Assembly (NCBI GenBank): GCA_016840085.1
Contig: JAEOTA010000086.1
Location: forward strand, 1-64,000
Source of the DNA: Promethearchaeota archaeon
GTDB lineage: Archaea > Asgardarchaeota > Lokiarchaeia > Sigyniarchaeales > SOKP01
Direction: 5' to 3'
Length of the DNA stretch: 64,000 nucleotides
Positions 57,678 to 58,313 of the stretch are shown piece after piece. The translations under genes were made by a program, and so were the position numbers. Position 1 is the first letter of the stretch, and every line of letters begins with the position of its first letter. The notes under the pieces are model-generated. The model searched no databases, was not told the origin of the DNA, and saw only the letters and a list, made by a program, of their open reading frames with translations.

Positions 57678-58313
57678 GTGGGGTATATAATGAGTCCTAT
57701 TATAACTCATGAGGATGAATTAGAGCTATCAAAAATGGAAAAAGAATTAGTTGCCCAATTTAAAAAATTGGCTAAATCTCAGACCAACTTAATTGGTACT
57801 CAAAAAAAATATGCAGAACATATCACTAAAACTAACATTACAAGAGAAATGCTCAATAGAATCTTCAGAGATGTTTTGAAACAAATGCAAACTTTAGCTC
57901 GTGAACATAGATCTAATATAAAAGATGAAGAAGTTAAATTATATCAAGACATTATTCATAAAAATGATGAATTTATTAAAGCTAACAATAAATATTTGAA
58001 TGCAATTAAGGATTTGGCTGTTCAAAAAGAATATTTAGTAGAAAAAAAAGAGGAATTTGTCAATGCCTTAGCTGATGTGGCGAGTAAAAGATCAATAGTT
58101 ATTAAAAAAGCTTTGGATGTTGAAAAAGCAAAAAATAAATTAATTGATGGAGATAAGTTAAACTTGCTTGACCAACAGTTTAATGATGTTCAACGAGATT
58201 TTGATCGTGCACGTGATATCTTAATAAAAAAACTAACTCAATTTATTGAAGTAAGAGATGAAATAAATATCTTATGGCTTAAATTAAAAGATAATGTTAC
58301 AGAGTTAAGTTAG
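57678..58313 (+). CDS. all-helical protein, BAR-domain-like
   Basis: About 205 aa nearly free of Pro/Gly, three long amphipathic helices; helix 2-3 hairpin resembles SNX/Vps5 BAR (by eye). Confidence 0.55.
   Translation: MGYIMSPIITHEDELELSKMEKELVAQFKKLAKSQTNLIGTQKKYAEHITKTNITREMLNRIFRDVLKQMQTLAREHRSNIKDEEVKLYQDIIHKNDEFIKANNKYLNAIKDLAVQKEYLVEKKEEFVNALADVASKRSIVIKKALDVEKAKNKLIDGDKLNLLDQQFNDVQRDFDRARDILIKKLTQFIEVRDEINILWLKLKDNVTELS

Follow-up and report, generated by a model that had tools for sequence, protein, structure and literature searches.

A predicted BAR-like antiparallel helical dimer conserved across one Loki order of the Asgard archaea

In the dimers of the BAR superfamily, the interface is built from helix 1, the first part of helix 2 and the last part of helix 3, and the tips are left free. 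The dimers of I-BARs are about 180 Å long, and eukaryotic BAR proteins recruit factors of the WASP family. For the Asgard archaea, a BAR/IMD-like protein of Lokiarchaeum was reportedly listed by Spang et al. in 2015. Pfam searches have turned up Asgard BARs of the Vps5 type, in sparse distribution (Eme et al. 2023, PMC10307638), and a prokaryotic protein with described BAR-like activity is BdpA of Shewanella (PMC8687657). Loki archaea form and maintain long, branched, actin-filled protrusions (PMC9834061, PMC13716822). Whereas the Asgard BARs already published are detectable by Pfam and patchy, the family described here, encoded in a 64,000-nucleotide contig segment (the window), is annotated as hypothetical and is invisible to Pfam searches.

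The preliminary description placed an open reading frame at 57678-58313 on the forward strand, and a frame of 211 aa opening with GTG is found there, with the segment quoted in that description inside it. The true start is most likely the ATG at 57690, because most homologues are 207 aa long and align from M-x-P-I-I-T, and because a purine-rich GGGG/GGAG element precedes this ATG; the four additional codons gained from the GTG at 57678 show no conservation in the homologue alignment. On sequence grounds, a chance ORF is ruled out by the 538 homologues found at E≤0.001 and by the presence of the family in 109 of the 121 genomes of the Loki order (about 90%). All four families of the order are represented and the gene is mostly single-copy, as it is in this genome, with a second, distant copy in several genomes outside the source genome's own family. 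A run of at least six T within 40 nt past the stop is seen in 28 of 37 loci and one of at least six A in only 6 of 37, and the gene is therefore probably its own transcription unit. The features of the locus are collected in Table 1.

Table 1. Coordinates of the BAR-like gene, its predicted structural elements and adjoining features, numbered from the first letter of the window
Feature	Coordinates	Strand	Remarks
TATA-like box 5' of the BAR-like gene (putative own promoter)	57615..57622	+	consensus match only
BAR-like protein gene, 207 aa	57690..58313	+	ORF, homologues, model
Helix 1 (residues 7-70)	57708..57899	+	predicted to pack antiparallel on partner helix 1; two-fold near residues 39-41
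Helix 2 (residues 79-149)	57924..58136	+	no proline kink; residues 76-91 and 134/137 predicted to contact the partner
Helix 2-3 tip (residues 146-156)	58125..58157	+	takes no part in the predicted interface; lysines 146, 148, 150 and 156 conserved
Helix 3 (residues 154-202)	58149..58295	+	shorter by about 19 residues than helix 3 of the canonical Loki BAR
7-T run directly after the stop of the BAR-like gene (putative archaeal terminator)	58330..58336	+	
Neighbour: protein with coiled coil, proline-rich part and C-terminal amphipathic helix	58444..58896	+	Asgard-wide family

Named homologues are annotated as "hypothetical protein" of Promethearchaeota or Lokiarchaeota, which assigns the window to a Loki-type Asgard archaeon; among them are the two members encoded by L. 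ossiferum (UYP46261.1 and UYP46633.1), the genome of which is a single contig of 6,035,313 bp; the UniRef label "Smc" on the L. ossiferum orthologue was set aside as an automatic coiled-coil call. Three phylum-wide Asgard searches gave no full-length member outside the Loki order, only partial weak matches, no bacterial relatives were identified in the HMMER lists, and no paper describing the family was found in the literature searched. By ESM Atlas features, the nearest non-Loki entry, as a lead only, is a 208-aa unnamed cluster of 745 mostly Bacteroidota proteins (0.87, 0.79). The protein had been called stand-alone, which is true of every relative seen except one, P0135 (L125:3001-4035), where the BAR-like part lies behind a 140-aa N-terminal region bearing a CxxC-x3-H motif; a dedicated search found no longer fused forms, which is weak evidence.

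The protein is not recognisable as a BAR by its sequence. Pfam scans of it and of sets of 50, 21 and 10 relatives yielded only sub-threshold coiled-coil matches: no member of the family rose above the cut-offs for BAR, BAR_3, Vps5, FAM92, IMD or Arfaptin, there was no Snf7 or PspA match to the protein, and FCH was matched weakly in 4 of 50 relatives (E 0.003). No PX domain was found in any member scanned by Pfam, the 207-aa chain being entirely BAR-like. Searches of this genome with FAM92, Vps5 and BAR profiles gave no match, with none for Vps5 (PF09325) at E≤0.1. The segment quoted in the preliminary description had been likened to the basic tip and helix 3 of SNX/Vps5-type BAR domains, an assignment that finds no support: there is no Vps5 or BAR Pfam match, a profile of the helix 2-3 tip and helix 3 retrieved no sorting nexin chain from the PDB at E≤10, and the rmsd of the model to SNX1 is 6.9-8.4. 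When the PDB is searched by sequence, designed coiled coils rank first. A match to the F-BAR of PACSIN2 (E about 1e-5, from a diverse profile) was rejected, as it is out of register and lays the helix 1-2 hairpin onto PACSIN2 residues 106-225. A profile link to the canonical, FAM92-like Loki BAR family was absent with alignment A1, reached a probability of 17-42% with A6 and, with A7/A8, was equalled by 10 of 200 block shuffles; a weak tip-to-tip alignment of the two families in the right register was suggestive once and not reproducible. The profile links are thus weak and unstable, and common descent with that family is no more than plausible. A query of the ESM Atlas features with the protein lists FAM92/BAR clusters at 0.77-0.81, which serves only as a lead.

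The AlphaFold2 model, built from 50 sequences, has a pLDDT of 94.2 and consists of three unbroken long helices, which bears out the three-helix layout of the preliminary description. Foldseek, which had been proposed as a check, returned BAR-superfamily chains in its first 29 rows and in 44 of the 50 rows listed; the top row is the I-BAR 1wdz (TM 0.54, E 0.005), and no row reaches E≤0.001. In a wide fold search arfaptin came first (Z 13.4, rmsd 5.0, 186 aligned), followed by SNX1, Lsp1, SNX5, ACAP4 and ACAP1, and the first non-BAR appeared at Z 11.2, a margin of 2.2 as compared with 5.0 for a control Loki BAR. The first 17 rows of a VIA re-alignment were all BARs, with arfaptin at Z 13.4 and FAM92A at Z 12.9. 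Since a Z near 13 is a level that, according to the tool, unrelated helical bundles can reach, the fold search alone is only suggestive. An ESM Atlas shape search with the model returned chemoreceptor hairpins and DUF632, and no BAR. A BAR-like fold is supported at the level of prediction. The N-terminal amphipathic helix H0 that marks N-BARs was not found, only six non-helical residues preceding helix 1 in the model; as to I-BAR features, the model has three helices and no fourth, and there was no IMD profile match.

For the homodimer, the prediction score was 0.80, while the best of three controls scored 0.00; among solved pairs 20 of 30 come up to that mark, and among single chains 1 of 23. 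The homodimer runs had at least 94% of their contacts in common, with a pLDDT of at least 86. Contact pairs between helix 1 and helix 1' sum to 74-82, and the predicted pairing is therefore antiparallel, with its two-fold at residues 39-41. The interface would be made of residues 9-69, 76-91 and 171-206, and it contains W196 of helix 3, which is invariant in alignment A1. Prediction supports an antiparallel homodimer with a central six-helix body, from which the helix 2-3 tips extend freely; resemblance to solved BAR dimers may account for part of this result.

We give somewhat better than an even chance to the reading that the protein is a divergent, Loki-order-specific member of the BAR superfamily acting as a short, nearly flat membrane scaffold, for which we infer shape, lipid binding and role. 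Each chain would fold into three long helices, as predicted with good confidence, and two chains would join in the antiparallel manner predicted alongside the controls, helix 1 lying on helix 1' with the first part of helix 2 and the last part of helix 3 beside it, and the tips remaining free. Judging from the helix lengths and the contact register, the resulting dimer would span about 120-130 Å, its arms short and its bend slight. By analogy with BAR biology, a stripe of basic residues along helix 1, together with the lysines of the tips, would bind anionic lipid head groups at the inner face of the membrane, and lattices of dimers might hold membrane that is flat or of weak or negative curvature, such as that along protrusions, and not pull narrow invaginations. 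Because an amphipathic N-terminal helix, PX, PH and SH3 are all absent, targeting of the protein would need partners.

The stripe on helix 1 is exposed and comprises K15, K18, K25, K29, R57, R60, K64 and R71, the last four being conserved at 78-96% among non-redundant members. The net charge of exposed columns is +0.26 for helix 1, -0.05 for helix 2 and -0.08 for helix 3, and the charge moment of helix 1 points about 145-150 degrees away from the core and the interface (p 0.046 by permutation, for one helix out of the three tested). At the tip, K146, K148 and K150 are found in 78-85% of 27 non-redundant members, a range that becomes 70-85% with K156 included. The basic tip of the preliminary description is thus present, though modest, with a net charge of about +3; its proposed resemblance to SNX/Vps5 tips found no support, there being neither a sequence nor a Pfam signal. 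The stripe and the lysine tips would fit a membrane-facing surface, on thin evidence. The charge of the whole chain is near neutral and varies among members, of which some are acidic (pI 5.4-9.3).

That near-neutral charge is one of the points which agree with an antiparallel helical dimer working as a protein scaffold or adaptor without a membrane role, whose likeness to BARs would come from descent or from convergence. In its favour, too, a sequence link to BARs is absent, non-BAR bundles score close to the BARs (PcsB Z 11.2, SipB 11.1, HpHbR 10.4, PPE 9.3), and the gene has the housekeeping neighbours pelota, Elf1, archease and exosome genes. We nevertheless consider it rather unlikely, as BARs span the whole chain and dominate three fold searches, and as the predicted dimer uses BAR-type surfaces while leaving its basic tips free.

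The shape of the BAR-like protein was compared with that of a positive control, a member of a second Loki BAR family that lies above the FAM92, BAR and BAR_3 Pfam cut-offs and was folded and searched identically. The control aligns with arfaptin at Z 17.2 and an rmsd of 2.2, and its rmsd is 2.5 to Bin1, 7.1 to IRSp53 and 6.7 to MIM; the corresponding values for the BAR-like protein are 5.0 (arfaptin), 5.3 (Bin1), 4.9 (IRSp53) and 5.1 (MIM), so that it fits curved BARs worse, and straight I-BARs better, than the control does. Beyond residue 10 the BAR-like family has 0.2 prolines per chain, compared with 4.1 in the control family; helix 1 is longer by 12 and helix 3 shorter by 19 than in the control. 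The preliminary description had expected a crescent-shaped antiparallel dimer from AlphaFold. The antiparallel pairing was predicted, whereas for the crescent the proxies, namely the rmsd relative to the control and the scarcity of prolines, suggest a flatter dimer instead. A classical crescent BAR with the geometry of arfaptin, FAM92 or SNX, tubulating membrane through its concave face, could claim the best Z-scores, which fall on arfaptin and FAM92A, and the weak tip-to-tip alignment with the FAM92-like Loki family. It is nonetheless a doubtful reading, the rmsd to curved BARs being about twice that of the control, the proline kinks being absent, helix 3 and the arms being short, and an SNX/Vps5 signal being absent.

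The second Loki BAR family, with a FAM92A match at E 1.5e-18, occurs in 20 of 301 genomes in single and tandem forms; it was not found in this genome, which is 98.8% complete, and L. ossiferum has three genes of this Pfam-type family. Tandem double-BAR chains, which could fold as single-chain pseudo-dimers, are encoded at L093:1477-2853 (-), L082:1480-2814 (-) and G312:C1:4484225-4485535 and 2539887-2541206, their hosts being Harpocratesius, a relative and L. ossiferum.

Downstream of the BAR-like gene, at the 130 bp reported earlier when measured to its called start, lies the polyproline gene. The family of its product is matched in 187 of 301 Asgard genomes, and the protein is made up of an N-terminal coiled coil, a proline-rich linker and a conserved C-terminal helix, R-x-x-[IL]-x-x-E-L-K-x-L-F-x-K-R. 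It is possibly a small regulator of the WASH/WAVE type, the family presumably resembling parts of WASH/WAVE; the CCDC53 Pfam gave only sub-threshold matches, in 7 of 29 (best E 0.017). At all 48 same-family loci with downstream DNA (some redundant), the polyproline gene is 3' of the BAR-like gene, once with an inserted gene. The two genes are neighbours across four families of the order, where four arrangements occur; outside the source family these include reversed order (G165, G237), a tail-to-tail placement (G301) and a Roadblock-like gene between them (G303, G304). In L. ossiferum, Harpocratesius and relatives the two lie far from each other. The neighbourhood is old, without being an obligatory unit, and an old common neighbourhood explains the gene pattern without physical coupling. 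The polyproline family also tracks Elf1, and in G213 the ORF of 206 aa that adjoins the polyproline gene turned out to be Elf1.

Recruitment of the polyproline neighbour by the BAR-like protein, which would couple membrane shape to Lokiactin and is compatible with the other readings, finds some encouragement in this repeated adjacency and in the BAR-domain proteins that a Lokiactin co-IP detected, though not significantly (PMC13716822). We hold it to be improbable: the T-run between the genes and their shifting order and orientation argue against a single transcript, the genes are separated in the lineages named above, the polyproline family is Asgard-wide while the BAR-like family is restricted to one order, and the BAR-like protein has no SH3 or other polyproline reader. 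The three Pfam-type BAR genes of L. ossiferum better explain the co-IP labels and are the likelier identities of the two BAR proteins concerned (PMC13716822). The bolder proposal, of a scaffold invisible by sequence, of flat or inverse curvature and near-universal in the protrusion-forming Loki order, that lines protrusions and is coupled to Lokiactin through its proline-rich neighbour, an archaeal counterpart of the IRSp53-WAVE/VASP machinery of filopodia, is a long shot.

Several observations were made around these genes. A polyproline paralogue lies at G000:C69:139996-140454, and tandem paralogues have a Roadblock-like gene upstream in G240 (L056). At L138:66-2134 and L135 (G303, G304) the order is polyproline, Roadblock-like, BAR-like and archease-like genes. 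In one case, L080 (G270:C47:3670-4965, -), a polyproline paralogue is immediately preceded, on its own strand, by a canonical FAM92-type BAR gene. A gene encoding about 575 aa, for which Pfam gave no match, separates the polyproline gene from Elf1 in most relatives (for example L041:1689-3443) and is missing here at 58897-59134 of the window; the Elf1 zinc-ribbon gene itself, at 59135-59710 (-), carries a 110-residue helical acidic C-terminal extension that is conserved in the order. At 55193-55348 (+), a 51-aa ORF with a WH2-like start (E-I-K-K-G-V-x-L-x-K) is conserved at 14 related loci, with the GNAT gene on one side and pelota on the other; the best PDB match of its profile is the WH2 of N-WASP (3m3n, E 0.002), and weaker look-alikes are found on contigs C24 and C56.

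An ESCRT-III/PspA-like polymer or a simple two-stranded coil, the outcome which the preliminary description had set against its own proposal and which the prediction did not give, is very hard to credit, for although PspA (Z 9.2, residues 9-137), Vipp1 (9.3) and CHMP4B (9.3) can be aligned with the helix 1-2 hairpin, these alignments cover the hairpin alone, helix 3 is a single 49-residue helix matching BAR helix 3, Loki Snf7 scores at background against the BAR-like profile, and the genome has two separate Snf7 genes.

If the favoured flat-geometry membrane binding is true, the BAR-like protein becomes a concrete candidate for the shaping of protrusions, and BAR geometry will have diversified in archaea; if membrane binding is false, the protein is one more conserved helical dimer. 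It is small, soluble and easy to express. Among known systems, arfaptin-2 and FAM92A (CIBAR1; 1i49, 4dcn, 9uhd) are alike in having about 200 residues and three antiparallel helices, in aligning over the whole chain (Z 12.9-13.4) and in an antiparallel dimer, predicted here, through helix 1, the first part of helix 2 and the last part of helix 3; the BAR-like protein differs in its 9-12% identity, rmsd of 4.5-5.0, lack of proline kinks, shorter helix 3 and arms, and lack of a Pfam match. The I-BARs IRSp53, MIM and PinkBAR share the basic tips, and the protein fits their straighter outline better than the control BAR does, but the rmsd is 4.9-5.7, the fourth helix and an IMD match are absent, and the dimer would measure only 120-130 Å. 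With SNX-BAR/Vps5 proteins the BAR topology is shared, SNX1 residues 305-500 aligning to residues 20-207 of the model, whereas PX, a Vps5 match and a Vps28 fusion are lacking and the rmsd to SNX1 is the high one given above. BdpA is bacterial and tied to outer-membrane vesicles and extensions, while the present protein is archaeal. The second Loki BAR family is alike in lineage, length, three helices and the weak tip-region profile alignment, yet it is a canonical curved BAR of patchy occurrence. Finally, the Asgard Vps5-BARs are sparse, in contrast to the BAR-like family, which is near-universal in one order.
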